Assembly (NCBI GenBank): GCA_964359495.1
Contig: CAYHTG010000002.1
Location: 8,943 to 54,031, forward strand
From: an uncultured Candidatus Peribacteria bacterium
GTDB lineage: Bacteria; Patescibacteriota; Gracilibacteria; UBA1369; 2-02-FULL-48-14
Length of the DNA: 45,089 bases
Direction: 5' to 3'
In this document: piece after piece, positions 8,187 to 41,833 of the stretch
How positions within the stretch are numbered: the stretch's first letter is position 1
Layout: each line of letters starts with the position of its first letter
Program-made: the position numbers and the translations under genes
The notes under the pieces: generated by a model
Databases searched by the model: none
Told to the model about the DNA's origin: nothing
What the model saw: the letters and a program-made list of their open reading frames with translations, nothing else

Positions 8187-8552
8187 TTAATTATCTTTTA
8201 AAAACCAATGGATCAGCCAGTTGGCTATGCCAAAGATAAGGGCTGCCAGAAGATAAGTCAAGAAGCCGTCCACGGCCAGGTCTACACCCTCAAAATCCAT
8301 AACCGCTAAAAGGTAATCGGCCAGATAGAGCATGAGGGCATTCAAGACAATCAAAAAAAGACCTCCCGTAAGAAAAACCAAGGGAAAAGAAAGGATTTTT
8401 AAGATGGGTTTTAAAATGAAATTCAGTACGGTTAAAATGAGGCCTACAATAATAGGTGCCACTACGCCCCCTTCAAAAACGAAACCTTCCAAAACGCGAC
8501 TGACAAGGAAAAGTGCAAGGGCGTTGGCGAGGATGGTGGCGATGATACGCAT
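8187..8552 (-). CDS. small polytopic membrane protein (DUF360/YvlD, phage-holin-4-like family; recalled from memory)
   Basis: 121 aa and almost entirely hydrophobic, with about 4 TM segments. Its N-terminus is MRIIATILANALALFLVSRVL. Confidence 0.55.
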   Translation of the reverse strand: MRIIATILANALALFLVSRVLEGFVFEGGVVAPIIVGLILTVLNFILKPILKILSFPLVFLTGGLFLIVLNALMLYLADYLLAVMDFEGVDLAVDGFLTYLLAALIFGIANWLIHWFLKDN

Positions 8553-8575: not shown

Positions 8576-11500
8576 TTAGGCCTTTCTTACGGCAAGTTTA
8601 GCTGAGAACCCTTCGATATTGAAATCTTTTTCTAAATCCCACTCAAAATTACCCCCTTGCATCAGTTCCTCCGCCAAGGTTTCTTCGCGAATGATCCCGG
8701 CAAATTGAGTCACCGCAGCTTCCAACTTACCTTCACTTTTGACTTGAGCATGGATACGATCGCTCACTTGGTAACCTGCTTCTTTGCGCAGATCTTGAAG
8801 ATGACGTACCACTTCCCGCATGAGACCTTCGAGCTCGAGCTCTTCCGTGAGATTTAAATCAAGAGAAACCACCGTGCCATCCTCAGACTCAATATCTATG
8901 CCTTCCTTCCCTTTATAAGCCATCTCGACTTCATTGGGTTCTAAAGTGAAACCGGCCACCACCACTTTTCCGTTTTCCAAAACCTTAAAATTTCCACTTT
9001 TTGCTTCCCGTATGATTTTTTGAACTTCTTTCCCATATTTTGGACCCAAGAGTTTTGCGTTCGGCAGGGCGACGAAATCGGCCAAGTCTCCCGCATTTTC
9101 CAATATTTCGAGTTCTTTAACATTCAGTTCTTCAAGAATCACTTCTTTTTGAAGGGTTACTTTTTCGGGATTCACGGATTTAGGAAGTCCGATGATCACT
9201 TTTTGCAAAGGCTGACGAACGCGAATTTTTTTCTTTCCACGAATGGCGTGACCTAAGTTCACAATTTGCCTAGCCAAATGGATTTCCTCATTAAGTCCCT
9301 GATCAATTTTTTCTTCTTCGGCTTTGGGCCAGTCAGAGAGGTGCACCGATTCTTGCTCCGTTAGATTTCTGTAGATTTCATCAGCGAGAAAAGGCATAAA
9401 GGGAGCCAGGAGCTGTGAAAATTTTACTAAAACTTCGTATAAAGTGCTGTAAGCGCAGAGTTTATCTCCATCATTTTCCGATTTCCAGAAACGACGACGA
9501 CTACGCCTGACGTACCAGTTTGAAAGGTCGTCTACAAAATCCAGCATGGGACGGGTTGCTTTGGTGAGGTTGTAGTTGTCCATGTTTTCCGTGACTTCTT
9601 TAATCAAGTCATTGAGACGAGAAAGAATCCAAAGGTCGAGTTTGTGAGTACTGTCTATTTTTAAGCTCGGCTGCGCCGAGTAACCATCAATATTCGCGTA
9701 AGTCACAAAAAAGCTATAGGTGTTCCAAAGGGTAAGAGTGAATTTCTTAACAAGTTCATCTACATGTTGTTCGGAAAAACGCACATCTTCCGCAAGAGGC
9801 GCTGTGGAGGTGTAAAGAAACATGCGGGTGGAATCCACACCCTTCTCTTCGAAAAGGAATTTGGGGTCGGGATAGTTTTTCTTTCGTTTGGAAAGTTTTT
9901 CTCCGTCAGCGGCAAGGAGAATCCCGTTCACAATGACGTTTTTAAAGGCCGGTTTGTCGAACAAAATGGTCGCGAGCACATGAAGGGTGTAAAACCATCC
10001 CCGAGTTTGATCGACTCCTTCGGCAATGAAGTTGGCCGGAAAATTATTTTCAAATTCTTCTTTGTTCTCGAAAGGATAGTGGAGCTGAGCGTAAGGCATG
10101 GCTCCCGATTCAAACCAACAATCGAGGACTTCAGGGATGCGCTGCATCATCCCGCCGCATTTTGTACAAGGAAACGTGACTTCATCAATATAGGGTTTAT
10201 GCAAATCGACTTCCCCCTCCCGCATGGGAACTTTTCCACTGCGCGCTTTCAGTTCTTCAATGGAACCAAGGCACTCTTGCGCCTCGCACTGTTCGCACTC
10301 CCAAATTGGAAGAGGCGTCCCCCAAAAACGATTCCTTGAAATATTCCAATCACGAACGTTTTCGAGCCATTTCCCAAAACGGCCTTCTTTAATATGATCG
10401 GGCTGCCAATGAATTTTTTTGTTGTTGGCGATGAGTTTATCCTTAATATCCGTCACTCGAATGAACCAAGCTTTGGTGGCATAATTGAGAAGCGGCGTGT
10501 CGCAACGCCAGCAATGAGGGTAGCTGTGACGAATATTTTCTTTTTTAAACAATTTCTCGCGTACCTCCATATCCTCGGCGAGGTTTTGGTCTTGAGTTTT
10601 TGCAAATTTACCCGAAAAATTTCCTACCGTTGCATCATAAAGCCCATCCATGGAAACATTAAGAATGAGCGGAAGATTGTGCAGTTTTGCGGCTTCCATG
10701 TCGATTTCTCCAAAAGCGCCGTTGATGGTCGCAATTCCCGTTCCATCTTCATCGCTCACATAATCGGTGGCGACGGTGTGAAAAGCTTTTTCTGATTTCT
10801 GAACCTCGGGATGAGAATTGTAATAATCAAAAACATGTTTGTATTTTTTCCCAATAATTTTCTCGCCTTTGAAGTGCTCAATGATCTCATACTCTGCAGG
10901 GGGCAGATGAGCGAAGGCCCAAGGAACTCGTTTTTCCGCAAGTATGAAATTTCCACGGGGTGTCCGAACCTTAACGTAATCGATGTCTTTTTTTACGGCC
11001 AGCCCCATGGTTGAAGGGATGCTCCATGGGGTCGTGGTCCAAGCAATGAAAAAAGTACCCGGCTCTTCTTCAAGTTCAAATTGTGCGATCACTGAAAGGT
11101 CCGTGACATCTTTGTAGCCGAGAGAAACTTCGAAATTCGAAAGCGGCGTGACGCAACGAGGGCAAACGTGCATGGCTTTAAAATCCTGATACATCATTCC
11201 TTTGTCCCAAATCTGCTTGAAGACCCACCAAATCGATTCCATGTAGTTCGCGTTCAAAGTCGCATAGCCATGCTCAATATCCACCCAACGAGCCAAGCGC
11301 TCCAGGAGTTCATTCCACTGCTCGGTATAACGAAAAACACTTTCGCGACATTTACCATTAAAAGTTTCAATGCCCATGGCTTCGATGTCTTTCCGTCCGT
11401 TTAAGCCCAAGGCTTTTTCAATTTCGTATTCCACGGGAAGCCCATGACAATCCCAGCCGTTCACACGAGGGACATAGTAGCCCCGCATAGTGAAATACCG

Positions 11501-11707
11501 CGTCACCGCATCTTTAAGCGATTGCGCAAGAATATGACCGTAATGAGGAAGCCCATTGGCAAAAGGAGGACCATCGAAAAAAACGAACTTGGGTTTTCCT
11601 TTTCTTTGCTCCACGGATTTCTCAAAAATTCCTTTTCGTTTCCAGTATTCAATGTGTTTATGCTCGATTTCGGGGAGCTGAGTTTTGGGATCGACGGGAC
11701 GAAACAT
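8576..11707 (-). CDS. ileS: isoleucyl-tRNA synthetase
   Basis: HIGH-type motif PHYGHIL, KMSKS-type motif KLSKRKKN, an editing-domain region and Cys-rich clusters (CPRC, CEQCEAQEC, CTKCGG). I chose the start at MFRPVDPKTQ (ATG at 11707), giving 1043 aa. Confidence 0.95.
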   Translation of the reverse strand: MFRPVDPKTQLPEIEHKHIEYWKRKGIFEKSVEQRKGKPKFVFFDGPPFANGLPHYGHILAQSLKDAVTRYFTMRGYYVPRVNGWDCHGLPVEYEIEKALGLNGRKDIEAMGIETFNGKCRESVFRYTEQWNELLERLARWVDIEHGYATLNANYMESIWWVFKQIWDKGMMYQDFKAMHVCPRCVTPLSNFEVSLGYKDVTDLSVIAQFELEEEPGTFFIAWTTTPWSIPSTMGLAVKKDIDYVKVRTPRGNFILAEKRVPWAFAHLPPAEYEIIEHFKGEKIIGKKYKHVFDYYNSHPEVQKSEKAFHTVATDYVSDEDGTGIATINGAFGEIDMEAAKLHNLPLILNVSMDGLYDATVGNFSGKFAKTQDQNLAEDMEVREKLFKKENIRHSYPHCWRCDTPLLNYATKAWFIRVTDIKDKLIANNKKIHWQPDHIKEGRFGKWLENVRDWNISRNRFWGTPLPIWECEQCEAQECLGSIEELKARSGKVPMREGEVDLHKPYIDEVTFPCTKCGGMMQRIPEVLDCWFESGAMPYAQLHYPFENKEEFENNFPANFIAEGVDQTRGWFYTLHVLATILFDKPAFKNVIVNGILLAADGEKLSKRKKNYPDPKFLFEEKGVDSTRMFLYTSTAPLAEDVRFSEQHVDELVKKFTLTLWNTYSFFVTYANIDGYSAQPSLKIDSTHKLDLWILSRLNDLIKEVTENMDNYNLTKATRPMLDFVDDLSNWYVRRSRRRFWKSENDGDKLCAYSTLYEVLVKFSQLLAPFMPFLADEIYRNLTEQESVHLSDWPKAEEEKIDQGLNEEIHLARQIVNLGHAIRGKKKIRVRQPLQKVIIGLPKSVNPEKVTLQKEVILEELNVKELEILENAGDLADFVALPNAKLLGPKYGKEVQKIIREAKSGNFKVLENGKVVVAGFTLEPNEVEMAYKGKEGIDIESEDGTVVSLDLNLTEELELEGLMREVVRHLQDLRKEAGYQVSDRIHAQVKSEGKLEAAVTQFAGIIREETLAEELMQGGNFEWDLEKDFNIEGFSAKLAVRKA

Positions 11708-11749
11708 AAAAAGGGATGAATTTTTACTCTCGCATGTTATCATCACGTT

Positions 11750-12742
11750 ATGAAAAAACCAAAAATTTGTCTCCTCTTCTGTGGTGGAACCATTGGGATG
11801 GTGCGCAATTCAAAGACAGGAGTCCTGGAACCGGCGCAAGACGCGTCCGAGATTTTACGGCTTTTTCCGGAACTGCAGAAAATCCTCCAGTTTGATTTTA
11901 AGGTTTTAGTGAATATTGACAGTTCGAACATGGATCCTGAGATTTGGACGCAAATTGCAAAGAAAATTCACAGTCTTTACGATCAGTATGATGGATTTGT
12001 AGTGGCTCATGGAACGGATACCATGGCCTACACGGCAAGTGCGATGTCTTTCGCTTTGCAAAATTTAAATAAACCAATAGTTTTTACCGGGTCTTTGGTC
12101 CCTTTGAGTGAAATTGGTTCAGACGGAAGGAATAATTTGATTTACGCTTGTCTCACCGCCACCCTGGATATTGCTGAGGTTTGCATCGTTCTTTCGAATC
12201 ATATTATTCGAGGGAATCGAGCTAAAAAATTCCATGAATCGTTCTCGGCTTTGTTCCACTCCCCCAACTACCCTGTTCTTGGCGAACTCGGTCGTCCGAT
12301 TAAACTGAATGATTGGAGACTCAAACGACGCGACAGAAAACTACACTACCAGCCTTTATTCGACACTAAAATCTCTGTCTTAAAACTTTTCCCCGGTTTT
12401 GATCCTGAAATTATAGACAAAGTGTTGGAACGAAAAGCTCATGGCATTATTTTAGAGGGATTTGGTCCCGGGAACGTCCCCTCCAATATTATTTCAAAAA
12501 TTGAAAAATGTACCAAGCAAGGCGTGCCCTTAGTCTTGGCCAACCAAATGGAGAATGGAGTGACTAACCTTGCCTCTTACGCCGTGGGTTATCAAGCGGA
12601 GCAAGCCGGCGCACTGAGTTCCAAGGACATGACTACCGAATCCACCGTGAGCAAACTCATGTGGGTTTTAGCTCAAACACGAAAACTTTCTGAAATTCGT
12701 AGCCTCATGGAAAGCGATTTGGCCGGAGAAATGAGTGCATAA
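11750..12742 (+). CDS. type I L-asparaginase family protein
   Basis: ICLLFCGGTIGM (catalytic Thr motif) and VVAHGTDTMAYTA (second Thr motif). The ORF is 330 aa and lies divergent from ileS across a 42-bp spacer. Confidence 0.85.
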   Translation: MKKPKICLLFCGGTIGMVRNSKTGVLEPAQDASEILRLFPELQKILQFDFKVLVNIDSSNMDPEIWTQIAKKIHSLYDQYDGFVVAHGTDTMAYTASAMSFALQNLNKPIVFTGSLVPLSEIGSDGRNNLIYACLTATLDIAEVCIVLSNHIIRGNRAKKFHESFSALFHSPNYPVLGELGRPIKLNDWRLKRRDRKLHYQPLFDTKISVLKLFPGFDPEIIDKVLERKAHGIILEGFGPGNVPSNIISKIEKCTKQGVPLVLANQMENGVTNLASYAVGYQAEQAGALSSKDMTTESTVSKLMWVLAQTRKLSEIRSLMESDLAGEMSA

Positions 12743-12818
12743 AAAGATCGCTTGGGTCTATCTTTCGGCTTGTTTGAGCTAAAATATACGCTTCGGAAAA
12801 CTTCGCAAGTCCATATTT

Positions 12819-12847
12819 TTGTCAAGGACGCGGCTTTCACTTATCAT
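12819..12847 (+). promoter_or_regulatory. candidate sigma-70-type promoter for the small-ORF/giant-ORF unit
   Basis: TTGTCA (12819-12824), a 17-nt spacer, then TATCAT (12842-12847). This is read by eye and has no experimental support. Confidence 0.3.
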
Positions 12848-12878
12848 TCGGCACTATTTAATGTTTCACTTGTGCTTT

Positions 12879-13121
12879 ATGGAAAAAATAATCTCTTTTC
12901 AAAGATTTATTATCGAACTGCTGGCCGTGCAGTTGCCCAAACTCAACTTGAGCGAGCTTGAGGTTTTAGGCACTCAGGTGGCGATTTACTCTTATTTTGA
13001 GAACAACAATTCGCTCGAAAAAATTTATTTTGAGATTTTGGATTATTGCGATGAGAACGAAAAATTGAGTGTTTTGCTCCCTAAAATTGAAGACTTTTAC
13101 TCTCAAACCCTCGATTCATGA
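12879..13121 (+). CDS. hypothetical small acidic protein, translationally coupled to the giant ORF
   Basis: The ORF ends in ATGA, overlapping the giant-ORF start at 13118. I chose the ATG at 12879 (MEKIISFQRF..., 80 aa). ATG 12861 and the track start 12819 remain possible. I recognise no family. Confidence 0.4.
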   Translation: MEKIISFQRFIIELLAVQLPKLNLSELEVLGTQVAIYSYFENNNSLEKIYFEILDYCDENEKLSVLLPKIEDFYSQTLDS

Positions 13122-16100
13122 GCGCCAATTCGAGTGTTTCATTGGATTACTACCACGATCTGGAAGGAGAGATCGCTCAGCTTAAAGCTTTTGCCGAGCC
13201 TTTGATGGAGGAAGTGAAAGTAACGCCCCTCATGCCGGTTATTAATCGTATCATTAACCTGAAGGATAGGCTCCTCGGCCTCAGCGAAGGAGAGCTTCAA
13301 TATGTGCAGGCCGAAGTGGCGGAGTGCAAGCGTTTGCTCGATGATATTTCCTACGAATACATCAAACAAATCATCACCAAACCCATTCCTTCGGATGTGT
13401 TTGGAGTCCTTTCCAGCGGCACAGAGTTCGAGAAAACCTTACGATCGGCAATTGGGAAAAAGATTTCTACCGGTAAGGGTGACCCTGAAGTTGCCATCAC
13501 ACCCGACCTGGTTGACGCTCTCACTCGCTACCGATTTTCGCTCGGAACTCCTCCCGTCACGCCCAAAGGGATCCAAACGGTTGAGAAAATTGTTTTTGGT
13601 GGAACTTTGCAAAATATTTATGCCTTTCGAGATCTCATCCGTTGCGATAGAGGGGTTTTTGATCGTTTCTTGGGTGCCGTCGATAGGCTCAATGAGCAAA
13701 GTACTCATTACACGACGGAAGCTGAAAAGCGAGATTTCAAAAAAAAGGCAATTGAGTTCCCCAATTTGGAAGGAGCTCGCGGTCTCACCAAAGCCATTGT
13801 GAGCGGAACGTCCGAAACCGCTCTTCGTTTGGTTAGGGAGCAGCTCTTCAGCAAACATGCGAATGGAAATTGTCCGGTACGAGTGATGGAAGAGGCGGAG
13901 CCTTTTACTCCTCATTTGATGCAAGAAATGAAAGCGGATAAACGATCCATGTTTATCGTGAAGGCAAGCTCCATTCCACATCACATTTTTACGGATGACG
14001 TTCTAAAAGAAGAATGGAAAGGACTTATCGGTCGTTTGGTTGTTATTGATGATTCCGACGCCGCAAAAAGATCGGGTACCGTTTTGGTTTACTCTCTTAT
14101 TCCGGAGGTCACCAGGTATTTGGAGCAATTCCATGTGAAAGATTCCGGAACGCCCGCCAACACGCAAATGAACCTTCGTCTGATTCTGGAGAATTTTAAA
14201 AATGGCGATATTGATCAACTCATTCAAAGTGTAAACGAAAAGGCCGCCCTCTTGGAAGCGGAAGGTGTGCATTTGCTTCCGCACGGAGAAGTTCGAAAAA
14301 AAGAATGGCAAAAAACAGGACAATTGGATTATATGAATTTGAAGAAATTCAAGCGCTTTTTGGAATTTGTGAAAAAAATGAAGTCGGGTGATTTTTCTGA
14401 AATTGGGGAAAATAATCGTCGTCTTGAGAGACGAACCGGTGAGCTCACGATGGATTATTTCTTCAAAGACTTAAAAGGTAAAGGGTATCGTGCCATTACT
14501 GTTCCTCAAGGTGGCGGTCGTCGTGAAATCGGACTTCCGGGACGCTTTCATTTGAAGGGTCACAATAAAAAAGTTGCCGACTTTAAAGGGCAAAAACTCC
14601 AGGCATGCAGAGAAAAACTCCTTGCATTAAAAAGAGATCTTGGAATACCCGAGGAGACCACGGCGGCGGAAGCGGCGGCTTTACAGCGCGCCTTGGACGC
14701 TCGAAGAAGTCCTCACCTTCCCCCTGAGGGAGAAGCCGTCAGTCGTATTGGCGCCAAAGTAAAAACCCGCGTCACGGAAGCCATTCATGAATCGGCGCTT
14801 CGATCGGACGTCGTTGTGAATGCCGTGATTGCCCGTATGGATGAGGTGCTTGGCGCCAATATTCCGGGTTTTATGAAAGGAAAAGTCACGAAACTTCTTC
14901 GAAGTGGTGGGATTGAAGCGGCGGCAAAAATGTTTGACCGTGGACAATTCAGAGCTGCGGCAAACCGTCTCAGAGCCTTGGGAGGGCGCATCAGAGTCGG
15001 GGCCGCCCATCTTGCCGAAAAAATTCAAACCCCTTTGGAAATAATTCGGTCTCGTTTGGAACCGGCTGATCTGGACTTGGTGGAACGTCTTCTGAATGAC
15101 ATTGAGAACGGGTCGTTTGAGCCGAGTCTTGCCTTGTCTGAGGTAAGCTGGACGGTGGGAGATGTTTTACGCGAAGAAGATTTCCCCAAAAAGAACTTTA
15201 TTAAAATTGAGTTGAACGGCGACGGATCGCAAAATCCCGATTCTCTTGAAAGACAATTGGAAGAAAAACGCCGAGCACTCGCCGAGTTTCCGGAACTCTT
15301 TGAGCTGTATTGCTCCAGTATATTGATTTACTTCAATGATCCGCACAATCCGACCTCTCAAGTGGCCAGCCCCCAAGTAAAGCTGAAACTGTTGGATCTT
15401 GCCTCCCGATACAACTTGGCTATTTTGGCCGATGAACCTTATCACAAACAAGTTTCCAAGAAAGTAAAAGACCGACAAGGCGATCCTTCTTTTGCCGAGT
15501 TTTACGAACGATACCGACCTCGTTTCCCCAATCCGGTTCGCATCTACGGCTCCATCTCAACGACGAAGTGGGCCATGGGAGCCGGGCGGCGCACGGGAGT
15601 GCTTCTGACGAATGACAACTCCGTGATGGAAGACGGAAAGAATTTTGAAGATTTTGTGGCCGAGAATATTGATGGCTGCAATGCCATGTCTCTGTACATG
15701 GACCAAGAAACTTTACTCATCGGTCTCCTGGTAAAAAGAGTTTGCAAACCCATTGAGGCTTACATTGATGTGACGAATCCTTACAATATCCTCAGTAATG
15801 CTCTTAATCCTTACGGTAATACTTGTGAGTTGCTTGATCAAATTCTCCATGAGAATTTTTCCGATCTAAACGCGGAAGATTTTAACGCTGCCATGTATTC
15901 ACTTCTTCTTGACTCTCGAAACAAGCTCGATCGACTTCAAGCACGTGGCGCTGAGCCTATGGATTACTATCAATTTTTGAGCGATCTTGTTTCAAAACTT
16001 AAAGAATTCCGGCTCGATAAACAAACTCAAAAAGACTCCGCGCAAAGGAGCCAGGCCGCATGGGAAGCCGTGAAGCGTTTGTCCGCAGAATTTCCAGGCC

Positions 16101-19100
16101 TTGAAGAACGGTGCATCGAGCCACAAGGTCCTTTTTATTTCTTGGTGGGTCTTGATCAAACGACCAATGATCCCGCGCTGCGGCCTTTTCTTTTGGCTCT
16201 GGCACGTGCTCGAAAAATTGAAGTTGTTCCACAGGCCAAAGGGTATGCTCGTTTTGCTTTCGGAGGTTTGGTGGATGGAACCGAGGAAGGATACAAGGAT
16301 TTTAGTTTGGGTATTGAAACGGATCTTCGTTTGCTTCTCAAATATTGGGATGAGTTCCAAGCCATTCGTGCTCGCTTGAACAAAGAAAAAGACCTGGATC
16401 CCATTAACAATGCGCTCAAGGAACTCTTCCCCGGCGGTGAAATTGATTTGGCGCGAACGATACAAGATAAAAGTGTGCTTCTTGAGCGTTTGCGCTCGAA
16501 CCCACGCACCGGAAAAGACAGACTCACCAATCGTTTTTCTCCGGCTGGTTCACAATACATGTCCAGCATTGAACCAGGCTCTCCGACCACCATTGTCACC
16601 ATTCGTGACGTCCAATGTCGAACGGCGGAAGATTTTATAAACAGCGAAGCTTTCCGTGATTTGTTCAATATTTTCTTGCTTCAAGTGAAAGGTCAAATTT
16701 CGGGCTTGGAGCAAATGGAAGACAGTGCCATTATCGCTCAATATGGCGCCGATGAATTTGCGAAACGCTTCGAATCCCGCAACTTCCAAAATGTTCGCCG
16801 TGATATTTTTGAAGAAATCGCCATTCGCGTCGCGAATTTGTGGTTTAACCCGAGTATGATCAAGATTTTGGGACTCAAAATTCCCGACGGTCTTTCAGCC
16901 TCGGACCAAGGAGATCTTTTGAGAGGAGCAGAAGTGAGAATTTCAGACTTTATCCAGACGATTATTCAAGCTTTTGTTAGTCCGGAGAAGGAGGCTCAAG
17001 TTCTCCAAGAAAGAATTGAAATGATCATTAAGGGCTTAAATCAAAAACTTCCTCAAGAAGATAGAGAAAAACTTCTGGTATACACTCGTGATTACGAATT
17101 GTTTTCAGCTTTTTTGAACAGTCTCGACGAAGATTTGGTTCCTCTGCATACGAAAGAAAGATTATTGGCTCTGACTCGAAAAGTCAGTTACCCTGCAAGT
17201 TTTCAAGCCGCTTATCCCACGGTTCGCGGCATCAAGGCCGATTCCGGTTTACAAGCATGGGCTCAAAAATTTATAGGCCGTGCGGAATTCGCCGGACAAA
17301 GCGTGGCTACCGATAGGTCCCCCGCCATGGTTACTCCCGGCACGGCTCGAGTGGCCGGTTATGAGCGAGGTATTTATCGCCGCGACGGAGACGGTAGTTC
17401 CGCTCCCGGGAAAGATTTTTTTAGAAAACGCTTGGGTGAATTTGCCGAAGTTATGAATCCCAAAGACTACGTGTGCAAAATGGTTCAAGTGGGTCCTACG
17501 CGACTCATGCTCGTAATGCACCGATCCTACAGCCACTACATGGTTCATGAACTTCAACTTTTCCCTCAATTCGATGTCTCTTTGGCCGAAATGCAAAATT
17601 TGAAGCCGGACGCCATCTGTTTTATGGGTATTCCCACTAAAACGATCGGGGAAGATTACAGAATCGGTAACTTTTTGGATGAAGATTCCGATGGAACTTC
17701 CATTCCGGTTTCCTGGGTTGATGCTGAGGACATTACCGATTACATGGGCTATTTTAAAAAACCCGTACTGACGGTGGCCAATGAACGGGTAAAAGCCGTC
17801 GGCGGAATGCCCGTTCATGGTTCAGCGCTCACCATTACGGCAAAGAACGGACTTCGTAAAACAGTGGTTATGGGAGGTGACAGCGGAACGGGTAAGTCGG
17901 AAACCATCATCGCGATGACCAATCAAATTATTGAGGGCCTTGGCGGTGCAGAAAATATTGAATCGGTGGAATTGCTCTCGGGAGACATGTTGTCTCTTTT
18001 CGAAGGTGAAGATGGGGAAATGTACATGATGGGAACCGAATCGGGAGATTTTATGCGTTTAACCGATATTCCCAAGGAGTGGCAGGAAAGGATGAGAGAC
18101 TGGATCAGTAGTTCAAGTAAAACCAACCTTGACGACAAAACCAATCCGAGAGCGACCATTAACGGTATCTGCGATCCCAATGTTTTTTTGAGTCCGGTTC
18201 GAGTGAATATCTTCGCCAATATCAATAATTTTGAAAAACCCGAAGGCGCGGCTTTTCAAGAGGACCGAGACCCTGCGAACTTGCTGCTCGATACTTATGT
18301 AAAAGGCTATCGCTGTGAAAAAGGTACCAGTGGAGATCAGCCCAATCTTTTTGCCAGCATCGAGCAGAGTAAAGTGCCTGACCGTGAGACATTGCTCACC
18401 AAATATAAGGAGGATTTGGATCGGCTTCTGGGTTGGAACCTTATTCTGGCAAAGACTGGAAAAGTAAAAACATCCATTCTTTCTTTCAAAGACGTTCCCG
18501 GTGAAGTGTTTAAGGCCAGTCAAATGGTGAAGGATCTTTTTGTCGGGAAGCATTGTGACTATAAAGACAAAGAGAAAAAGGAAGAAAAAAACTATACGAT
18601 TTTAGACGCTCGGTATGCAGTGCGCGAAAATCGTTTTTATGTCACGGTCAAAGATGAAGATACGGGTGCGACGGAGGAAAAACCTTTGGATCGAAACATT
18701 TTCGATGGAGTTTACAATCCCATTGCCAGCACCTATTGCGGAAATCCATTTGTTGATCCGCGCGGTATGGATTCCGTCTTGCGAAGATTTGCAGGGGTAA
18801 TGAAGAAAGCAGGCGTCATTACGGGTAACTTGTACACGGAGTTAGGTGTTGAAGGGGAAGAGCGCAGCGGTCCCGCACGAGCCGCTCAAGCGTTGATTGA
18901 GTTTATTGAAGAAGATCCTCGCATCAATGAACGTTTCCAGCGCAATAAAGATCGTGTTTCACGGGCGCTCACCACAAAATACGGAGCCGCCATTTTGGGG
19001 CAAGGCAGTATTCCTCAAGAAGTGGAGGCTCATAATCTTTATCTTCTGGAAAGACAGGAAAGCGATGCCGTTCATTTGGTGGACAGCGCGAGAAAAACCG

Positions 19101-19444
19101 TTCCCATTCGAACGCCTCACTACGAAAATGTCTCTGGAAGGTCTAAAAAAGAATTTGCGCCTTCTCTTGTTCGCCCGGAAATCGCAAAAATCATCAATGC
19201 GGTTTGTGAGGGTCCCGACGGCAAGGCTATCAATCTGGAGCATTTCGACCCTCCTCTAGAACGTTATGATTCCATTCAAACTTGGGACAACAAAGCCGAG
19301 CTCATTTATCAAATTTTGCTCATCAATGGTGTAATGCGGCTCGGGTACATCGAAGGCATTGTTCATCACCAAATCGCTGAAGTCAAAAAAGCTGAAAAGA
19401 TCGCTGAGGAATTAATGCGAAGTAGAAGTGTAAGTGCGGCCTAA
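13118..19444 (+). CDS. giant 2108-aa multidomain protein: central split aminotransferase class I/II-like fold plus an HprK/PEPCK-like P-loop kinase domain; the rest is unassigned
   Basis: A single uninterrupted ORF. Aminotransferase-like motifs: ITVPQGGGRRE (aa 460), FNDPHNPTSQV (aa 740), LADEPYHKQV (aa 772), SISTTKWAMGAGRRTGVLL (Lys817) and PQGPFYFLVG (aa 1002). Kinase-like motifs: VHGSALTI...VVMGGDSGTGKSETIIAM (aa 1566-1600). Confidence 0.85.
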   Translation: MSANSSVSLDYYHDLEGEIAQLKAFAEPLMEEVKVTPLMPVINRIINLKDRLLGLSEGELQYVQAEVAECKRLLDDISYEYIKQIITKPIPSDVFGVLSSGTEFEKTLRSAIGKKISTGKGDPEVAITPDLVDALTRYRFSLGTPPVTPKGIQTVEKIVFGGTLQNIYAFRDLIRCDRGVFDRFLGAVDRLNEQSTHYTTEAEKRDFKKKAIEFPNLEGARGLTKAIVSGTSETALRLVREQLFSKHANGNCPVRVMEEAEPFTPHLMQEMKADKRSMFIVKASSIPHHIFTDDVLKEEWKGLIGRLVVIDDSDAAKRSGTVLVYSLIPEVTRYLEQFHVKDSGTPANTQMNLRLILENFKNGDIDQLIQSVNEKAALLEAEGVHLLPHGEVRKKEWQKTGQLDYMNLKKFKRFLEFVKKMKSGDFSEIGENNRRLERRTGELTMDYFFKDLKGKGYRAITVPQGGGRREIGLPGRFHLKGHNKKVADFKGQKLQACREKLLALKRDLGIPEETTAAEAAALQRALDARRSPHLPPEGEAVSRIGAKVKTRVTEAIHESALRSDVVVNAVIARMDEVLGANIPGFMKGKVTKLLRSGGIEAAAKMFDRGQFRAAANRLRALGGRIRVGAAHLAEKIQTPLEIIRSRLEPADLDLVERLLNDIENGSFEPSLALSEVSWTVGDVLREEDFPKKNFIKIELNGDGSQNPDSLERQLEEKRRALAEFPELFELYCSSILIYFNDPHNPTSQVASPQVKLKLLDLASRYNLAILADEPYHKQVSKKVKDRQGDPSFAEFYERYRPRFPNPVRIYGSISTTKWAMGAGRRTGVLLTNDNSVMEDGKNFEDFVAENIDGCNAMSLYMDQETLLIGLLVKRVCKPIEAYIDVTNPYNILSNALNPYGNTCELLDQILHENFSDLNAEDFNAAMYSLLLDSRNKLDRLQARGAEPMDYYQFLSDLVSKLKEFRLDKQTQKDSAQRSQAAWEAVKRLSAEFPGLEERCIEPQGPFYFLVGLDQTTNDPALRPFLLALARARKIEVVPQAKGYARFAFGGLVDGTEEGYKDFSLGIETDLRLLLKYWDEFQAIRARLNKEKDLDPINNALKELFPGGEIDLARTIQDKSVLLERLRSNPRTGKDRLTNRFSPAGSQYMSSIEPGSPTTIVTIRDVQCRTAEDFINSEAFRDLFNIFLLQVKGQISGLEQMEDSAIIAQYGADEFAKRFESRNFQNVRRDIFEEIAIRVANLWFNPSMIKILGLKIPDGLSASDQGDLLRGAEVRISDFIQTIIQAFVSPEKEAQVLQERIEMIIKGLNQKLPQEDREKLLVYTRDYELFSAFLNSLDEDLVPLHTKERLLALTRKVSYPASFQAAYPTVRGIKADSGLQAWAQKFIGRAEFAGQSVATDRSPAMVTPGTARVAGYERGIYRRDGDGSSAPGKDFFRKRLGEFAEVMNPKDYVCKMVQVGPTRLMLVMHRSYSHYMVHELQLFPQFDVSLAEMQNLKPDAICFMGIPTKTIGEDYRIGNFLDEDSDGTSIPVSWVDAEDITDYMGYFKKPVLTVANERVKAVGGMPVHGSALTITAKNGLRKTVVMGGDSGTGKSETIIAMTNQIIEGLGGAENIESVELLSGDMLSLFEGEDGEMYMMGTESGDFMRLTDIPKEWQERMRDWISSSSKTNLDDKTNPRATINGICDPNVFLSPVRVNIFANINNFEKPEGAAFQEDRDPANLLLDTYVKGYRCEKGTSGDQPNLFASIEQSKVPDRETLLTKYKEDLDRLLGWNLILAKTGKVKTSILSFKDVPGEVFKASQMVKDLFVGKHCDYKDKEKKEEKNYTILDARYAVRENRFYVTVKDEDTGATEEKPLDRNIFDGVYNPIASTYCGNPFVDPRGMDSVLRRFAGVMKKAGVITGNLYTELGVEGEERSGPARAAQALIEFIEEDPRINERFQRNKDRVSRALTTKYGAAILGQGSIPQEVEAHNLYLLERQESDAVHLVDSARKTVPIRTPHYENVSGRSKKEFAPSLVRPEIAKIINAVCEGPDGKAINLEHFDPPLERYDSIQTWDNKAELIYQILLINGVMRLGYIEGIVHHQIAEVKKAEKIAEELMRSRSVSAA

Positions 19445-19465
19445 ACGCTCAAGGCGGCTTTCTAG

Positions 19466-20086
19466 TCAACTCGGTTGGCTTTTCTGTAGGGCTTCCGCTA
19501 TTTTCACAAACTCCGGATCCAAATTGAGGCGACTTTCTTCCGGAAATTCCTGACCCTGGTATTTGGAGCTTTTCTTCATGTTATAAGGGACGTCGGCCGG
19601 CGAACTCATGGGCTCGAACGCAAGCTGGCACACGCGCATTCCCGGGTAGAGGGCGACCGGCATCCTGTTGATGTTGGTGATTTCGAGCGTGATGTTTCCT
19701 TCAAAACCCGCGTCCACGAAACCGGCGGTGGAATGGATAATAATGCCGAGGCGACCGAGGGAGCTGCGACCTTCCACGCGAGCCACAATATTATTGGGGA
19801 GTTTTACTTTTTCAACGGTGACACCGAGCACAAAGTCGCCAGGGTGTACGATGAACGGTTCCGCGATATCCGTGACTTCAATTTGTTTGGTCATACCTTC
19901 GAAGGAGCGCATTTTCAGAGGATCAAGAACGGGAAATTTGCTGTGTTCATAGACTTTAAAAAATCTCCCCAAACGAAGGTCGAGGCTCGATGCATGGATG
20001 TTATCCATGTGGTCGTTTTCCGGAGAAGTTATAACAATTTCTCCAGCTTTTATGAGTCGTTTGATATCGCGGTCGGAGTAAATCAT
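19466..20086 (-). CDS. dcd: dCTP deaminase
   Basis: MIYSDRDIKRLIKAGEIVI..., ASSLDLRLG, VEGRSSLGRLGIIIHSTAGFVDAGFEG and ITLEI are dCTP deaminase/dUTPase-fold motifs. The ATG is at 20086. Confidence 0.9.
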   Translation of the reverse strand: MIYSDRDIKRLIKAGEIVITSPENDHMDNIHASSLDLRLGRFFKVYEHSKFPVLDPLKMRSFEGMTKQIEVTDIAEPFIVHPGDFVLGVTVEKVKLPNNIVARVEGRSSLGRLGIIIHSTAGFVDAGFEGNITLEITNINRMPVALYPGMRVCQLAFEPMSSPADVPYNMKKSSKYQGQEFPEESRLNLDPEFVKIAEALQKSQPS

Positions 20087-20102
20087 CACGCGAAGCGTTA
20101 AT

Positions 20103-21443
20103 CTATAAACTAGCGGCCAGTCCAATGTACCCTTCCGGAGTGAGCTTCAGCAAGCGCTTTTTAGCGTCTTCGGGAATGTCGAGTTCATCAACAAAGTTAG
20201 CGATTTTTTTCTGACTTACTTTCTCACCGCGTGTTAGTTCTTTTAACTGCTCGTAGGCATTTTGAATTCCGTAGCGTCGCATCACGGTTTGAATGGCTTC
20301 CCCCAAAAGTTCCCAGTTTTCGTCGAGGTCACTACGAAGCTTTGCTTCATTTACTTCGAGTTTACCGAGTCCCTTTTGAATGCTTTTGTAAGCAAGGAGG
20401 GAATACCCGAGAGCGGTTCCTATGTTTCGGAGCACCGTGCTATCGGTGAGGTCGCGCTGCATGCGGGAGATGGGAAGTTTTTCGCTGAAATGAGTGAATA
20501 AGGCGTTGGCAAGTCCCAAGTTCCCTTCGGCATTTTCAAAATCAATGGGATTCACTTTGTGCGGCATGGTGGATGAACCCACCTCTCCTTTCACTGTCTT
20601 TTGGTTGAAGTAACCCATGGAGATGTAAGTCCAACTGTCACGGCAAAAATCGATCAAAATGGTGTTTGTGCGGCGCAAATTATCAAAAATTTCCGCCATG
20701 TAATCGTGGGGTTCAATTTGCGTGGTGTAGCGTTGCCACTCGAGGCCCAAATCTTCGACAAATTGACGAGAAGCCGCCGCCCAATCCACCTCCGGGTATG
20801 CCACTGTATGCGCATTGAAATTACCCGTTGCTCCATTCATTTTTCCTAAAAACTGAGTTTTTGAAAGTTGTTCATACTGACGGTAAAGACGGGATCCCAC
20901 ATTTTTGAATTCTTTCCCCACCGTGGTTGGCGAGGCCGCTTGGCCGTGCGTGTGGCTCATCATGGGCACTTTTCGATAGGTCTCCGCAAAGTCTTTAAAT
21001 CCGGCTAAAACTTTTTCCAGGTTGGGCAGGAGAATGGTATGTACTCCGCCTTTCAGCATTTGAGCGTAAGCCAAATTATTGATGTCCTCCGAGGTGCAGC
21101 CGAAATGAACAAAAGAAATGAGGTCTCCGCGTTTTAGAACCTTGAGTGCTTTTTGTAAAAAATATTCCACGGCCTTTACATCATGGTTCGTGGTTTTTTC
21201 GATTTCTTTCACCTCCTCGGCAAAGGCATCTTGAAAATCGGTATAGAGCTTTCGGAGGGCGGCCACTTCTTTCTCATGTAGACGTTCAGTCCCTTTCAGT
21301 TTGAGTGTATTGACAAGAAAAATGAGCCATTCCACTTCCACTGCAATACGACTTCGAATGAGTGCGGCTTCGGAAAAAAATCGAGCGAGTTCGCCCACTT
21401 TTTCAACGTAGCGTCCGTCCAATGGAGAGAGTGCTTTGTTCAT
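20103..21443 (-). CDS. purB: adenylosuccinate lyase
   Basis: LSPLDGRY at the N-terminus, the HxxxTSxD-like FGCTSEDINN, and the signature loop GSSTMPHKVNP. I chose the ATG at 21443. The alternative GTG at 21455 would abut purE. Confidence 0.95.
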   Translation of the reverse strand: MNKALSPLDGRYVEKVGELARFFSEAALIRSRIAVEVEWLIFLVNTLKLKGTERLHEKEVAALRKLYTDFQDAFAEEVKEIEKTTNHDVKAVEYFLQKALKVLKRGDLISFVHFGCTSEDINNLAYAQMLKGGVHTILLPNLEKVLAGFKDFAETYRKVPMMSHTHGQAASPTTVGKEFKNVGSRLYRQYEQLSKTQFLGKMNGATGNFNAHTVAYPEVDWAAASRQFVEDLGLEWQRYTTQIEPHDYMAEIFDNLRRTNTILIDFCRDSWTYISMGYFNQKTVKGEVGSSTMPHKVNPIDFENAEGNLGLANALFTHFSEKLPISRMQRDLTDSTVLRNIGTALGYSLLAYKSIQKGLGKLEVNEAKLRSDLDENWELLGEAIQTVMRRYGIQNAYEQLKELTRGEKVSQKKIANFVDELDIPEDAKKRLLKLTPEGYIGLAASL

Positions 21444-21454
21444 TTTTATACGCA

Positions 21455-21925
21455 CTAAAGTGTGCAGGGTTTAGTATCAAATAAATTTTGAACCACTTTG
21501 GTATGATTACGAACTTTTTTTGCGAGATCCTTGTCGGTCAAAGCTAAAATGCGAGCCACCGCTTGACCGGCATTTTTCGGATCCACTACTGTAAGAGCCG
21601 GAGTTTCACTGGGCATTTGCAAGGAGGAATGAATGTTGGCCAAGTAATCGGCGTAGTCTTTAAAGGGGGGACAAGCCAAAACCGGAAAATGCGTATTGGC
21701 GGAAACCAATCCACTGAGGGCGTTGGATCGACCGGCTATGGTCACAAAAACCACACTTTCTTTTTTTTCATTAAAATGTTTAATGATTTCCAGCGTTTTT
21801 TCAGGAACTTTGTGCGCGGAGGAAATATAAATTTCATGTTTCACACCGTAATCGTCCAAAATTTTGGCGATTTCCTTAGCGTGATCGAGGTCGGATTTTG
21901 AGCCGAGTATAAAAGGGACAATCAT
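21455..21925 (-). CDS. purE: 5-(carboxyamino)imidazole ribonucleotide mutase / AIR carboxylase catalytic subunit
   Basis: ILGSKSDLDHAKEIAKILDDYGV...ISSAHKVPEKT and IAGRSNALSGLVSA are PurE motifs. The ORF is 156 aa. Confidence 0.9.
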   Translation of the reverse strand: MIVPFILGSKSDLDHAKEIAKILDDYGVKHEIYISSAHKVPEKTLEIIKHFNEKKESVVFVTIAGRSNALSGLVSANTHFPVLACPPFKDYADYLANIHSSLQMPSETPALTVVDPKNAGQAVARILALTDKDLAKKVRNHTKVVQNLFDTKPCTL

Positions 21926-22890
21926 AGGAAATAAGGTTTAAGATTAGTTTCAATGCGAGAAAGAACGTCGCCGGGCTCGGCCGTGAAGCTTTGTCCCGTG
22001 ATCATTTCATAAGCTTGAATGTATTTCTCGGCAGTTTCACAAATAACCTCCTGTGGAATTTCCGGGATTTCCCCTTCCCCGGTATAGCCTTTGTTGGCGA
22101 GCCAGAGTCGCAAAAATTCTTTATTGATGTTATCGGGTTCTTGGCTGGTGGCCATTTTTTCTTCGTAAGTCGCGGCAATCCAGAACCGTGAAGAGTCGGG
22201 CGTGTGGATTTCATCGATCACCACAATGTCCCCTTCCGGGGTGAAGCCGAATTCGTATTTGGTGTCCACCAGAATCACTCCTTGGCGAGCGGCCACTTCC
22301 ACTCCTCTGGCGTAGAGCATCAGCGCATAATTGGAGAGTTTTTCCCATTGCTCGGCGGTGAGCAAGCCTTGCTTCAGAATCTCTTCGGGCGTGAGGTTGG
22401 CATCGTGATCGCCGTGTGCCGCTTTGCTGGTTGGGGTGATGATAGGAGCGCGCAAGCGCTCGTTCTTCTTGAGCCCCTCCTGTAAAATATTACCTCCGAT
22501 ATTCCTTCCCCCGTTCGCATAAATCGTCCACGCAGAAGTTGAGGTGGAGCCGGTGATGTAACCGCGCACAATCATCTCCACCATGATGGGTTTGCACTCC
22601 TTCCCCACAATCACTTGCGGATCGGGATAGGATTCGATGTAATTCGGGCAAATGTCCTTCGTATTTTCAAACCAAAACTTCGTGAGCGCGTTGAGCACTT
22701 GACCCTTGAACGGAATGAGCGCGATGACTCGGTCGAAGGCGGAAAGGCGGTCACTGGTTATGAGGATGCGGCGCTTGCCTTGAGTGTAGTTGTCACGAAC
22801 CTTCCCCTCGTAATAGCTTCCGAGATTTGTAAAACTCGTGCCTTTCAAAACATGAGGGATTTGAGAGGCAATGACGTCGCGAGGGATCAT
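21922..22890 (-). CDS. purC: SAICAR synthetase (long form)
   Basis: YEGKVRDNY, LITSDRLSAFD, ILVDTKYEFG and EIHTPDSSRFW are PurC motifs. It overlaps purE by 4 nt. Confidence 0.9.
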   Translation of the reverse strand: MIPRDVIASQIPHVLKGTSFTNLGSYYEGKVRDNYTQGKRRILITSDRLSAFDRVIALIPFKGQVLNALTKFWFENTKDICPNYIESYPDPQVIVGKECKPIMVEMIVRGYITGSTSTSAWTIYANGGRNIGGNILQEGLKKNERLRAPIITPTSKAAHGDHDANLTPEEILKQGLLTAEQWEKLSNYALMLYARGVEVAARQGVILVDTKYEFGFTPEGDIVVIDEIHTPDSSRFWIAATYEEKMATSQEPDNINKEFLRLWLANKGYTGEGEIPEIPQEVICETAEKYIQAYEMITGQSFTAEPGDVLSRIETNLKPYFL

Positions 22891-23034
22891 TTCGGGGGAT
22901 GGGTTAAGGTGTGAGTGTAGTTTAAAGGAAAAGTGCGGGGGTGGGAAGAGGGAGATTTAACTATAATTAGACATTTGCTTGAGTTATGATTTTCGTATAA
23001 CAAAACTTGATTAAATCTCAACTTAATTTCCCTT

Positions 23035-24201
23035 ATGAAAAGAGCCTTCAAAGTTAACCGTTTTCCATTTGCTTGTCACCCCAAGCTGCTTTTCGACCTT
23101 GCAAATAAAGAATATCTAACGAGATTCCCTATTCAATCTCTGCCATTTTCACACTGCATCGTATATGTAGTCGTGAGCGAAGACAAAAAGATTTCGTTAA
23201 AATTTTGTTTTCCCCAGGATGTCGATTTAATTTTGAGTTTCATACATAAGAGACCTGGCGGAGCGCATGCAGGTGAAGATACCTTAAACACAGACATTCG
23301 AGAGGTTACAGATATCCACATTCCAAATTTTGAGGAAAAATATTTTTTTGACTTTGCTTTTTTCATTTTTGATTTTAACACTGGAAAATATTGGTCTACG
23401 TTATTTTTAACCCAAGAGATATGTCCGGACTTAAGATTTTACTTGTCAAAAAAAAGAAAGGATCGGTATAAAAAAATTGGCAAGGATTTGGCAAAAAAAT
23501 ATAATACCACCCTTATCTTAGGACACACGAATCTTGCCTCTGGCAAACTACGCAGATCGAACGGCATCTCCAAATTGATTAGTAGTGGTTGGATCCCCAC
23601 AATCTCTCTTTTCCCACAACCCTACGGTGAGATGATAAATGTGATTGAAAAAGAAAACGATTTAGAGAAAGTGAACACGTTGATTTGTAAGGTTTTCCGA
23701 GAGAATCAATTTTTAGAAAAAATCTTAGAAAGATGGCTGGCCTCTAGTTTAACGAAAAAGAGAATCAGAGCTCTTCTGGCTATCGTTGATGATTTTAAAA
23801 GAGAAGACTATCTCTCCTGTATTTATGTCCTTTTACCTCAGGTAGAGGGGTTAATTACTGATCATATTAAAAGAAGGGGTCAAATACCTGGTGCAAAAAT
23901 CGAAGACCGGTTTAAGCAATTTGGCGATATCATTAATTCTGAAACTTATAACACGAAAATGACAAAATATTTAACTATGATTTTCATTCGTAGTCTTAAA
24001 AAGACTTTCTATAAAACTTGGTACCCTTACATCTATAGAGGAAAGGCATACCGTGGAGCTCACATAGTACCACAGAGGCACTTACTGCTTCATGGTGAAT
24101 TTAAACTGGGTTACTTTACAGAAGCAAATTGTATAAAACTCATGTGTATTCTTGATAATATTATTTTGTTGTCTCTCAGGGACAGAGAACTGACTCGCTA
24201 A
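23035..24201 (+). CDS. hypothetical protein with a C-terminal HEPN-like domain (putative Abi-type RNase)
   Basis: 388 aa and AT-rich. The C-terminal helical region contains PQRHLLLHGE, that is R348-x4-H353, which matches the HEPN Rx4-6H motif. It is preceded by ALLAIVDDFKREDYLSCIYVLLPQVEGLI. I do not recognise the N-terminal ~230 aa. Confidence 0.55.
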   Translation: MKRAFKVNRFPFACHPKLLFDLANKEYLTRFPIQSLPFSHCIVYVVVSEDKKISLKFCFPQDVDLILSFIHKRPGGAHAGEDTLNTDIREVTDIHIPNFEEKYFFDFAFFIFDFNTGKYWSTLFLTQEICPDLRFYLSKKRKDRYKKIGKDLAKKYNTTLILGHTNLASGKLRRSNGISKLISSGWIPTISLFPQPYGEMINVIEKENDLEKVNTLICKVFRENQFLEKILERWLASSLTKKRIRALLAIVDDFKREDYLSCIYVLLPQVEGLITDHIKRRGQIPGAKIEDRFKQFGDIINSETYNTKMTKYLTMIFIRSLKKTFYKTWYPYIYRGKAYRGAHIVPQRHLLLHGEFKLGYFTEANCIKLMCILDNIILLSLRDRELTR

Positions 24202-24801: not shown

Positions 24802-24806
24802 CGTCC

Positions 24807-24962: not shown

Positions 24963-25062
24963 AAATTTTAGCGTTAACTGACGGTGAAATAGTACTCCGA
25001 TGAAGTAGTGCAAGCAACTTTTGGTGCTCAAAAATGTGTTGTCAGAGCAGTGACAACAGGCA

Positions 25063-41826: not shown

Positions 41827-41833
41827 ATAGTTT

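Follow-up and report, generated by a model that had tools for sequence, protein, structure and literature searches.

The locus analysed here raises the question of what is done by a protein of 2108 residues, encoded among the housekeeping genes of an uncultured Candidatus Peribacteria bacterium, in which two enzyme-like folds appear to be joined. The stretch of DNA under study, hereafter the window, comprises 45,089 nucleotides (GenBank assembly GCA_964359495.1, contig CAYHTG010000002.1, positions 8,943 to 54,031 of the forward strand). The gene in question, a 6.3-kb open reading frame (ORF) referred to below as the giant gene, is directly preceded by a short ORF encoding a small acidic protein. 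A first-pass annotation, made from the sequence without database searches, had proposed that a single chain fuses a class I/II aminotransferase fold, dependent on pyridoxal phosphate (PLP), with a P-loop module of the superfamily that includes phosphoenolpyruvate carboxykinase (PEPCK) and HprK. Database and structure comparisons bore this out, as both folds were found. The preferred reading is that the giant protein interconverts aspartate, oxaloacetate and phosphoenolpyruvate (PEP) on one polypeptide; drawn from sequence comparison and predicted structures, it is given a probability of roughly 45%, somewhat short of an even chance.

The arrangement had also been called new, and no specific name for the fused architecture, its N-terminal domain or the small protein was found in any of the database sources and family libraries checked, which are the sole basis for calling them undescribed. 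The gut-bacterial homologues are annotated merely as 'aminotransferase class I/II-fold enzyme', and we know of no described fusion of an aspartate aminotransferase (AspAT) with PEPCK. Provisionally, the architecture is regarded as a new multi-domain arrangement of partly known folds with an orphan domain and an orphan subunit.

Domain architecture and conserved active sites

Full-length homologues of 2000-2240 aa were recovered from Peregrinibacteria and Bacteroidota. Those of the Peregrinibacteria/Peribacteria type share 35-88% identity with the query, and those of the Bacteroidota type, found in Rikenellaceae, Alistipes hominis, Marinilabilia salmonicolor, Anaerophaga thermohalophila, Paludibacter and one Ignavibacteriales genome, about 24-25%; many contigs of the latter type derive from human-gut metagenomes. 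More than 200 independent loci, some of them in isolate genomes, encode this architecture at 2000-2240 aa, which rules out an assembly artefact or a fused gene call. When 58 full-length homologues from the two phyla (24-88% identity) were aligned, invariant residues proved to be spread over the whole chain, and on this alignment AlphaFold2 (AF2) models of the two halves were built, with a mean predicted local distance difference test (pLDDT) of 87.9 and 89.5 and a predicted template modelling score (pTM) of 0.87 and 0.84 for the N- and C-terminal halves, respectively. The sequence libraries Pfam and NCBIfam, searched with the giant protein, returned two weak local matches only.

The aminotransferase domain was identified by Pfam Aminotran_1_2 (PF00155; 26 bits vs a gathering threshold (GA) of 19.7), in a local match of 62 residues (aa 722-783), PF00155 being precomputed on most homologues as well, and by comparison of the family profile with PDB, in which the Thermotoga maritima AspAT 1o4s was matched with an expectation value (E) of 7.9e-9. 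The top 50 Foldseek matches to the N-terminal half were all class I/II aminotransferase-fold enzymes, aligned over ~420 columns and including TM1131, KAT II, Thermus AspAT, LysN, MppQ and 1-aminocyclopropane-1-carboxylate (ACC) synthase. Invariant PLP motifs comprise GGGR465-468, N740-D-P-x-N744-P(-T), D772/Y775, T816-K817, G823/G827 and R1045, and R825 is present in at least 90% of the 58 sequences. The set of PLP roles is complete, with counterparts for the Schiff-base lysine (K817, which aligns with the lysine of 'SSSK' in the aminotransferase 3g0t) and for contacts to the pyridine nitrogen (D772), O3' (N744 and Y775), the phosphate (R825) and the alpha-carboxylate (R1045). The domain thus shares the whole fold, the PF00155 score and the PLP and alpha-carboxylate residues with class I/II enzymes (1o4s, Thermus AspAT 1bjw, KAT II, LysN), and differs from them by a helical insertion of ~200 aa after the phosphate-binding loop, by a small domain that is ~100 residues longer and by being fused on both sides. 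The insertion, whose helices run from H468-492 through H652-664, is poorly conserved, with lower pLDDT around aa 530-560. The GGGR-to-NDPxNPT spacing is 276 aa, compared with ~75 aa typically in AspATs.

In the MocR/GabR family, aminotransferase-fold domains with intact PLP residues act as effector-binding domains, and one module of the giant might likewise serve as a sensor and not as a catalyst, e.g. a MocR/GabR-like fold gating the PEPCK-like enzyme, or the reverse, resulting in a metabolite-gated carboxykinase. A MocR-like model is among the weak matches to the aminotransferase encoded beside one stand-alone relative of the PEPCK-like module (L037, see below), the ~200-aa insertion and the additional small-domain residues are in keeping with such a role, and the large N-terminal domain and C-terminal tail could mediate regulated oligomerisation. 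Against this, all catalytic positions of both modules are invariant across two phyla at 24-25% identity, which exceeds what binding would need, and Pfam and NCBIfam showed no output domain for DNA binding or signalling in the giant. A purely sensory function of either module is therefore regarded as improbable.

The second module is an entire PEPCK-like protein. In a profile-profile comparison with hhalign, residues 3-557 of a stand-alone family (see below) aligned to giant residues 1159-1930 with a probability of 99.94% (E 1.5e-36), which places most of the stretch at aa ~1060-1400, taken for an unrecognisable linker by the first-pass annotation, in the N-terminal portion of the module. The earlier domain limits required extension, from aa 440-1060 to ~396-1075 for the aminotransferase and from aa 1400-1800 to 1159-1930 for the kinase-like part, whereas the folds themselves stood, and the N-terminal ~395 and C-terminal ~180 residues are left unassigned. 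All top 50 Foldseek matches to the C-terminal half were PEPCKs of the ATP and GTP types (E 5.6e-12 to 1e-9; template modelling score normalised to the target 0.34-0.54), aligned over 370-583 columns, far beyond an HprK-sized subdomain, and no HprK entry was among them. In searches with sequence profiles, PEPCK_ATP (PF01293) matched aa 1540-1594 with 15.4 bits, below its GA of 26.5, NCBIfam PckA gave 17 bits vs a cut-off of 369, and the family profile ranked PEPCK (E 0.028) above HprK (1jb1, E 0.88) in PDB. A profile combining giants, stand-alone relatives and two neighbouring true PEPCKs (A6) matched the solved ATP-PEPCKs with E 2.4e-13.

The printed alignment of that profile to the solved ATP-PEPCKs fixed the register to E. 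coli PCK, in which Y207, K212/K213, H232, the P-loop G248-T255 (with K254/T255), D269, K288, N331/R333 and the NTG motif correspond to Y1542, K1547/K1548, H1567, G1587-S1594 (with K1593/S1594), D1623, R1647, N1676/R1678 and T1907 of the giant, respectively. The active-site string, Y1542, K1547, K1548, H1567, G1587-DSGTGKSE-1595, D1623, E1641..R1647 and N1676-P-R1678, is invariant in the 58 giants, as is T1907, and most of the mapped residues show no variation in the stand-alone proteins and in two true PEPCKs either. Counterparts of the Mn2+ ligands (K213, H232 and D269), of the substrate-binding residues (Y207, K212 and R333) and of the P-loop residues K254 and T255 are all present; residues named in the PDB titles among the matches (R65Q, Y207F, K212I, K213S, D269N) are studied PEPCK active-site residues. 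Compared with ATP-PEPCK (PckA, PF01293; E. coli 1aq2/1k3c, T. thermophilus 1j3b), the module shows the same fold of two domains, aligned over as many as 583 columns (Foldseek E ~1e-11), and the same string Y207, K212, K213, H232, GxSGTGK(T/S), D269, K288/R, N-x-R333 and NTG. It differs in its P-loop (GDSGTGKSE vs GLSGTGKTT), in two large insertions (aa ~1240-1330 and ~1745-1865) and in being embedded in 2108 aa, and its activity is a prediction.

With HprK/P, the module shares the P-loop superfamily and a GDSGxGKSE-like Walker A motif, whereas HprK has neither the N-terminal domain of PEPCK nor the Y-x-G-x-x-KK...H motif for metal and oxaloacetate; Pfam returned no Hpr_kinase_C match on the giant. 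An HprK-type kinase, as entertained by the first-pass annotation, thus gave way to a whole PEPCK fold with conserved oxaloacetate/PEP and Mn2+ ligand residues, and the module is best described, from alignments and the AF2 model, as a PEPCK homologue that has diverged but whose active site for small molecules appears to be intact.

The N-terminal domain is an alpha/beta domain modelled with pLDDT ~85-95, with invariant S141, G143, P145, P146, R171, Q194-S195, Y198-T199-T200, E203, R306, G344, N348 and Q350, including the motif QST(H)YTT at 194-200. It has no sequence match in Pfam, NCBIfam or PDB. Searched exhaustively with phmmer, a set of 1.84 billion representatives yielded 56 clusters, in which all long single-stretch matches were giants of 2000-2240 aa and the others were short, a repeat protein apart; the domain therefore looks exclusive to the giant family. 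The repeat protein (P0229, 1963 aa) carries 10 separate stretches matching query residues 108-200. A beta-alpha-beta pattern had prompted the idea of a degenerate second aminotransferase domain forming an intramolecular pseudo-dimer, which hhalign sequence profiles did not support (probability 0.1%); a fused asparaginase was likewise rejected (<3%). The C-terminal tail resembled neither the stand-alone family nor the small protein.

Proposed reactions and genomic contexts

With a kinase-like module of PEPCK type, the simplest coupling of the two active sites is through oxaloacetate, with the aminotransferase acting first and the carboxykinase second. The giant would accordingly be a cytoplasmic multi-domain enzyme at the aspartate/oxaloacetate/PEP node, in which the PLP domain would transaminate L-aspartate to oxaloacetate, or catalyse the reverse, and the PEPCK-like module would use a nucleotide and Mn2+/Mg2+ to convert oxaloacetate and PEP into each other. 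The fusion may hand oxaloacetate, which is unstable and scarce, directly from one site to the other. In Peregrinibacteria, aspartate would be supplied from asparagine by the asparaginase encoded upstream, and the small protein, which would be co-transcribed with the giant from a promoter of its own, would probably be a non-catalytic accessory, assembly or regulatory subunit. The pathway could run in the catabolic direction, from asparagine through aspartate and oxaloacetate to PEP, or from PEP and CO2 through oxaloacetate to aspartate, which together with asparagine hydrolysis would feed the nearby purine, asparagine and aminoacylation genes.

The two reactions in sequence are familiar from separate enzymes. 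In animals, cytosolic AspAT and PEPCK support gluconeogenesis from aspartate, and in anaerobes PEPCK drives the formation of oxaloacetate and aspartate; the proposal for the giant follows the same order, with one chain in place of separate canonical enzymes. The first-pass annotation had looked instead to PduX/CobD, PSTK/SepSecS and ThrB/ThrC, where a phosphotransferase works in the same pathway as a fold-type-I PLP enzyme. In those pairs the kinases, which are of the GHMP or other P-loop families, prepare phospho-esters for the PLP enzyme, whereas the giant has a PEPCK-type kinase whose fold and residues point to oxaloacetate coupling, the likely shared intermediate being a keto acid released by the PLP enzyme.

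Relatives of the PEPCK-like module also occur as stand-alone proteins, whose gene neighbourhoods were considered as well. A genome scan recovered proteins of 560-640 aa, matching giant aa ~1437-1932, in Thermotoga, Thomasclavelia, a planctomycete, an archaeon and FCPU426 (loci L037:6063-7748, L038:7311-8993, L039:13-1788, L040:5291-7048 and L041:7134-9056; proteins P0076-P0195). The family comprises at least 3285 clusters of ~550-640 aa from Thermotogae, Halanaerobiales (Halothermothrix), Firmicutes, Planctomycetes, archaea and FCPU426, annotated as 'hypothetical', 'ATPase' or, automatically, 'PEPCK (ATP)'. Stand-alone relatives score 25.2 bits against PF01293, below the threshold of 26.5, and a weak Hpr_kinase_C match (E 0.062) was obtained for L037 only. 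Residues 1159-1930 of the giant represent a full-length member with the same invariant motifs; the stand-alone proteins are single-module and themselves uncharacterised, so that membership in the family does not by itself assign a function to the giant.

Stand-alone genes adjoin asparagine synthetase A in Kosmotoga (L044; 398 bits vs 309), a true PEPCK together with aspartate ammonia-lyase in FCPU426 (L041; 628 bits vs 510 for the lyase), a true PEPCK in Thermotoga (L038; 423 bits vs 369), an AspC/TyrB-like aminotransferase in Thomasclavelia (L037) and an AsnC-type regulator in the archaeon (L040). One of the giant genes themselves, in the most divergent locus of Peregrinibacteria type (L004), is preceded by an AsnC-type regulator and an AsnA-like truncated homologue of class-II aminoacyl-tRNA synthetases. 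In Halothermothrix orenii (L042; CP001098: 283379-297154), the stand-alone gene lies between argC-argJ-argB-argD and carA-carB, and in Fervidobacterium (L043) it is convergent with the ornithine carbamoyltransferase gene. Outside these last two loci, all partners make or use aspartate or oxaloacetate, the two AsnC-type regulators excepted.

The same folds could, however, serve other chemistry, the PLP domain and the PEPCK-like kinase acting on another substrate pair. Either a different amino acid would be transaminated and the resulting beta-keto acid phosphorylated and decarboxylated, or the kinase would make a phospho-ester or an acyl/enol-phosphate for elimination, replacement or decarboxylation by the PLP domain, after the manner of PduX/CobD, ThrB/ThrC or PSTK/SepSecS. 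The class I/II fold includes non-transaminases, and ACC synthase and C-S lyases are among the structural and sequence matches, as is a CobD-type decarboxylase among the family models matched; a stand-alone PEPCK-like gene coexists with an adjoining true PEPCK, the family scores fall below the PEPCK thresholds, and some contexts concern the arginine and not the aspartate pathway. Yet the PEPCK residues for Mn2+, for oxaloacetate/PEP and for the transferred phosphate are invariant, the neighbours in five unrelated lineages handle aspartate or oxaloacetate (arginine-pathway loci and AsnC-type regulators aside), and R1045, the counterpart of the residue that binds the alpha-carboxylate, is retained as in ordinary amino-acid transaminases. 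On this evidence, a different substrate pair is considered unlikely, though not strongly so.

Several observations weigh against the aspartate/oxaloacetate/PEP reading. The best sequence matches of the aminotransferase domain are AspATs, yet the likeness is confined to generic PLP motifs; its substrate specificity is not readable from sequence, and aspartate is suggested by context alone. The PEPCK-like module shares only 12-15% identity with solved PEPCKs and is sub-threshold in Pfam (PEPCK_ATP) and NCBIfam, and the counterpart of R65 is ambiguous, being R1438 in the MAFFT and R1411 in the hhalign alignment. In two genomes a paralogue lies next to a true PEPCK, which suggests chemistry other than that of plain PEPCK, and the arginine-pathway contexts (L042 and L043) are not directly explained by an oxaloacetate model. 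The context evidence comes from a few loci and not from a statistical census, and the Bacteroidota-type giants are without informative neighbours. Lastly, ~575 residues in the N-terminal domain and the C-terminal tail, with many invariant positions, have no explanation in it.

Some of these points would be accommodated if the giant were a machine of three activities, combining a new catalytic or ligand-binding fold in the N-terminal domain, a non-canonical reaction of the PEPCK-like module, which its stand-alone family would share, and the PLP domain in an undescribed aspartate/oxaloacetate route, tuned in Peregrinibacteria by the 80-aa subunit. The N-terminal domain has about 17 invariant polar or glycine positions, and a non-canonical reaction would explain why a stand-alone gene is kept beside a true PEPCK. 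Such an extension is somewhat doubtful.

Upstream partners of the giant gene

The neighbourhood of the giant gene itself was surveyed by tblastn in all loci with upstream DNA, 29 of the Peregrinibacteria type and ~85 of the Bacteroidota type. Among the former, 26 carry the small ORF, overlapping the giant start or ending at most ~100 nt before it, and 27 carry a type I asparaginase with 52-87% identity, placed ahead of the small ORF at ~360-500 nt upstream from the giant start. The asparaginase in the window scored 321 bits against NCBIfam TIGR00519 (type I; cut-off 260.5). The order asparaginase, small ORF, giant holds even where the outer flanks are wholly different. The exceptions are L007 (no asparaginase), L061 (asparaginase and no small ORF) and L004 (neither partner). 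Neither gene was found by tblastn in any of the ~85 Bacteroidota-type loci, where no neighbour recurred in more than two of 12 dereplicated groups, and hhalign gave probabilities below 3% throughout for a small protein or an asparaginase fused into the giants of that type. The earlier view of a self-contained unit of two genes is hence only partly upheld: the small ORF and the giant do form a dedicated unit in the Peregrinibacteria type, but the asparaginase upstream had been overlooked and Bacteroidota-type orthologues do without the small ORF.

Two of the exceptional loci merit a separate description. In the Peribacteria locus L007, the isoleucyl-tRNA synthetase (IleRS) gene abuts the region, and a 93-codon ORF upstream (L007:7687-7968) shares no more than 21% identity with the small protein. 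It has either diverged strongly from the usual gene or replaced it. In L004, which is GC-rich, the giant is followed (L004:12579-16273) by a Peptidase_C39 ABC exporter and a LanM-like gene (DUF4135 + LANC_like), a class II lanthipeptide cluster that is probably a coincidental neighbour.

The first-pass annotation had described a small acidic ORF ending in ATGA on the giant start codon, which was verified for a product of 80 aa with a pI of 4.4. The ORF lister had begun this ORF at a TTG (12819..13121, 100 codons), whereas comparison with homologues places the start at the ATG at 12879. Between the window and the related locus L005, its codons differ by 22 synonymous and 8 non-synonymous changes; this excess of synonymous changes, together with conservation in 26 of 29 loci, indicates a real gene. 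In 22 loci the product has 77-84 aa and a pI of 4.1-5.5. Across 15 unique copies F40 is the sole invariant residue, with no invariant Ser, Thr, Lys or Cys, and no match was found in Pfam or NCBIfam. A profile search of 5.8 billion proteins recovered 10 clusters, on contigs sized like those of the giants. The small protein would thus be an accessory dedicated to the giant and confined to one lineage, and not a universal component.

These properties bear on the proposal that the small protein is the substrate or carrier on which the giant acts. In its explicit form, an HprK-like protein or peptide kinase would phosphorylate the 80-aa protein, which would later be processed by the PLP domain or serve as carrier. 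The P-loop GDSGTGKSE, which we take to resemble the HprK/P signature, and the tight coupling of a dedicated small ORF to the giant gene speak for it. With no invariant acceptor residue, and with the small protein absent from the Bacteroidota-type loci, from L004 and from the stand-alone family of more than 3000 clusters, in all of which the kinase sites are equally conserved, a role as substrate or carrier is unlikely; HprK is also missing from the top structural matches and reaches only E 0.88 against the family profile, while the two-domain PEPCK fold carries its Y/KK/H/D/R residues. An HprK-type kinase acting on the small ORF product is thus largely refuted by fold, residues, lack of an acceptor and phyletic pattern, and would now come as a great surprise.

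Gene layout in the window and implications

The coordinates of the giant gene, its domains and its upstream partners are collected in Table 1. GC content is 0.46-0.485 in the giant gene vs 0.43-0.47 in neighbouring 1-kb bins. The first-pass placement of the ORF among housekeeping genes without a compositional break was confirmed, the flanking genes being IleRS, asparaginase, dCTP deaminase and purB/purE/purC; in the absence of a GC break, and with synteny to relatives kept, recent horizontal transfer into the window was ruled out.

Table 1. Features of the giant locus (positions in the window; aa numbering refers to the 2108-residue protein)
Feature	Coordinates	Strand	Basis
Type I L-asparaginase, 330 aa	11750..12742	+	Pfam Asparaginase + Asparaginase_C
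Sigma-70-like promoter candidate, TTGTCA-17-TATCAT	12819..12847	+	Consensus scan and relatives
Small acidic protein, 80 aa, pI 4.4	12879..13121	+	Start common to homologues
Giant ORF, 2108 aa	13118..19444	+	Uninterrupted ORF in window
N-terminal domain, aa 1-395, family-specific, alpha/beta	13118..14302	+	Alignment, AF2
Fold-type-I (class I/II) aminotransferase domain, aa ~396-1075	14303..16342	+	Pfam, PDB profile, Foldseek, motifs
Helical insertion of ~200 aa, aa ~468-664	14519..15109	+	DSSP on AF2 model
Codon of K817, predicted PLP Schiff-base lysine	15566..15568	+	Invariant in 58 sequences
Complete PEPCK-like module, aa 1159-1930	16592..18907	+	hhalign, AF2, Foldseek, PDB profile
PEPCK-type active-site string, Y1542..R1678	17741..18151	+	Invariant in 58 giants
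C-terminal helical tail, aa 1931-2108	18908..19441	+	Helical in AF2 model
Terminator-like hairpin, weak candidate	19464..19480	+	20 nt past giant stop codon

The promoter candidate noted by the first-pass annotation proved to be the top promoter-like site in a scan of positions 11500-20500, matching 10 of 12 consensus positions; it is kept in L005, and the L001 version reads TTGAGT-17-TATCAT, the conserved flank being TC(G/A)GCACTATTTAA. The hairpin downstream of the giant gene, from the same type of consensus scan, has a 7-bp stem with three G-C pairs and a T-rich tail.

The window also carries purA, purB, purC and the aspartyl-tRNA synthetase gene (AspRS). Genes whose products form or consume aspartate, or work on adducts of it, are abundant (asparaginase, purB, purC, purA and AspRS, within 11750-12742, 20103-22890, 28150-29433 and 39338-41101), and this richness lends soft support to the idea that the giant supplies aspartate. 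When the window was scanned for Rfam families and tRNAs, a single tRNA-Leu (35031-35114), unrelated to the giant, was all that was detected; it adjoins a 362-aa ORF on the reverse strand (33756-34844) with an unusual pairing of Sigma70 region 4 and HARE-HTH. A Phage_holin_4_2 membrane protein gene (8187-8552, reverse strand) adjoins IleRS in the window and in L001, L005 and L007, and its retention in four loci marks it as a stable chromosomal gene and not prophage cargo. Two stretches are poor in GC. The first, 41000-43916 (0.36-0.37 vs ~0.45), contains an ORF without Pfam match (41122-41826), a further ORF (41834-42427) and a C-5 cytosine DNA methylase gene (42924-43916), and is probably a restriction-modification or mobile island; the second, 23000-26000 (0.35-0.41), includes an ORF of 388 aa without Pfam match (23035-24201).

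Irrespective of the reaction catalysed, the analysis brings to light a large PEPCK-like family (at least 3285 clusters) whose catalytic residues are intact, as well as a domain of ~400 residues and a protein of 80 residues without relatives outside the giant system in searches of 1.84 and 5.8 billion sequences, respectively. The giant occurs in cultured Bacteroidota (Alistipes hominis, Marinilabilia, Anaerophaga and Paludibacter) and in many human-gut metagenome contigs. For central metabolism and for PLP and PEPCK enzymology, the fusion, its joint occurrence in gut Bacteroidales and in the candidate-phyla radiation, and the large PEPCK-like family are surprising, the function itself being inferred. 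If the aspartate/oxaloacetate/PEP reading is correct, the protein would be a natural fusion that channels oxaloacetate, a compact answer to a labile intermediate of low abundance. Peregrinibacteria, a lineage of the candidate-phyla radiation, to our knowledge lack a tricarboxylic acid cycle, and in them the giant could be the route by which aspartate is made or burned.

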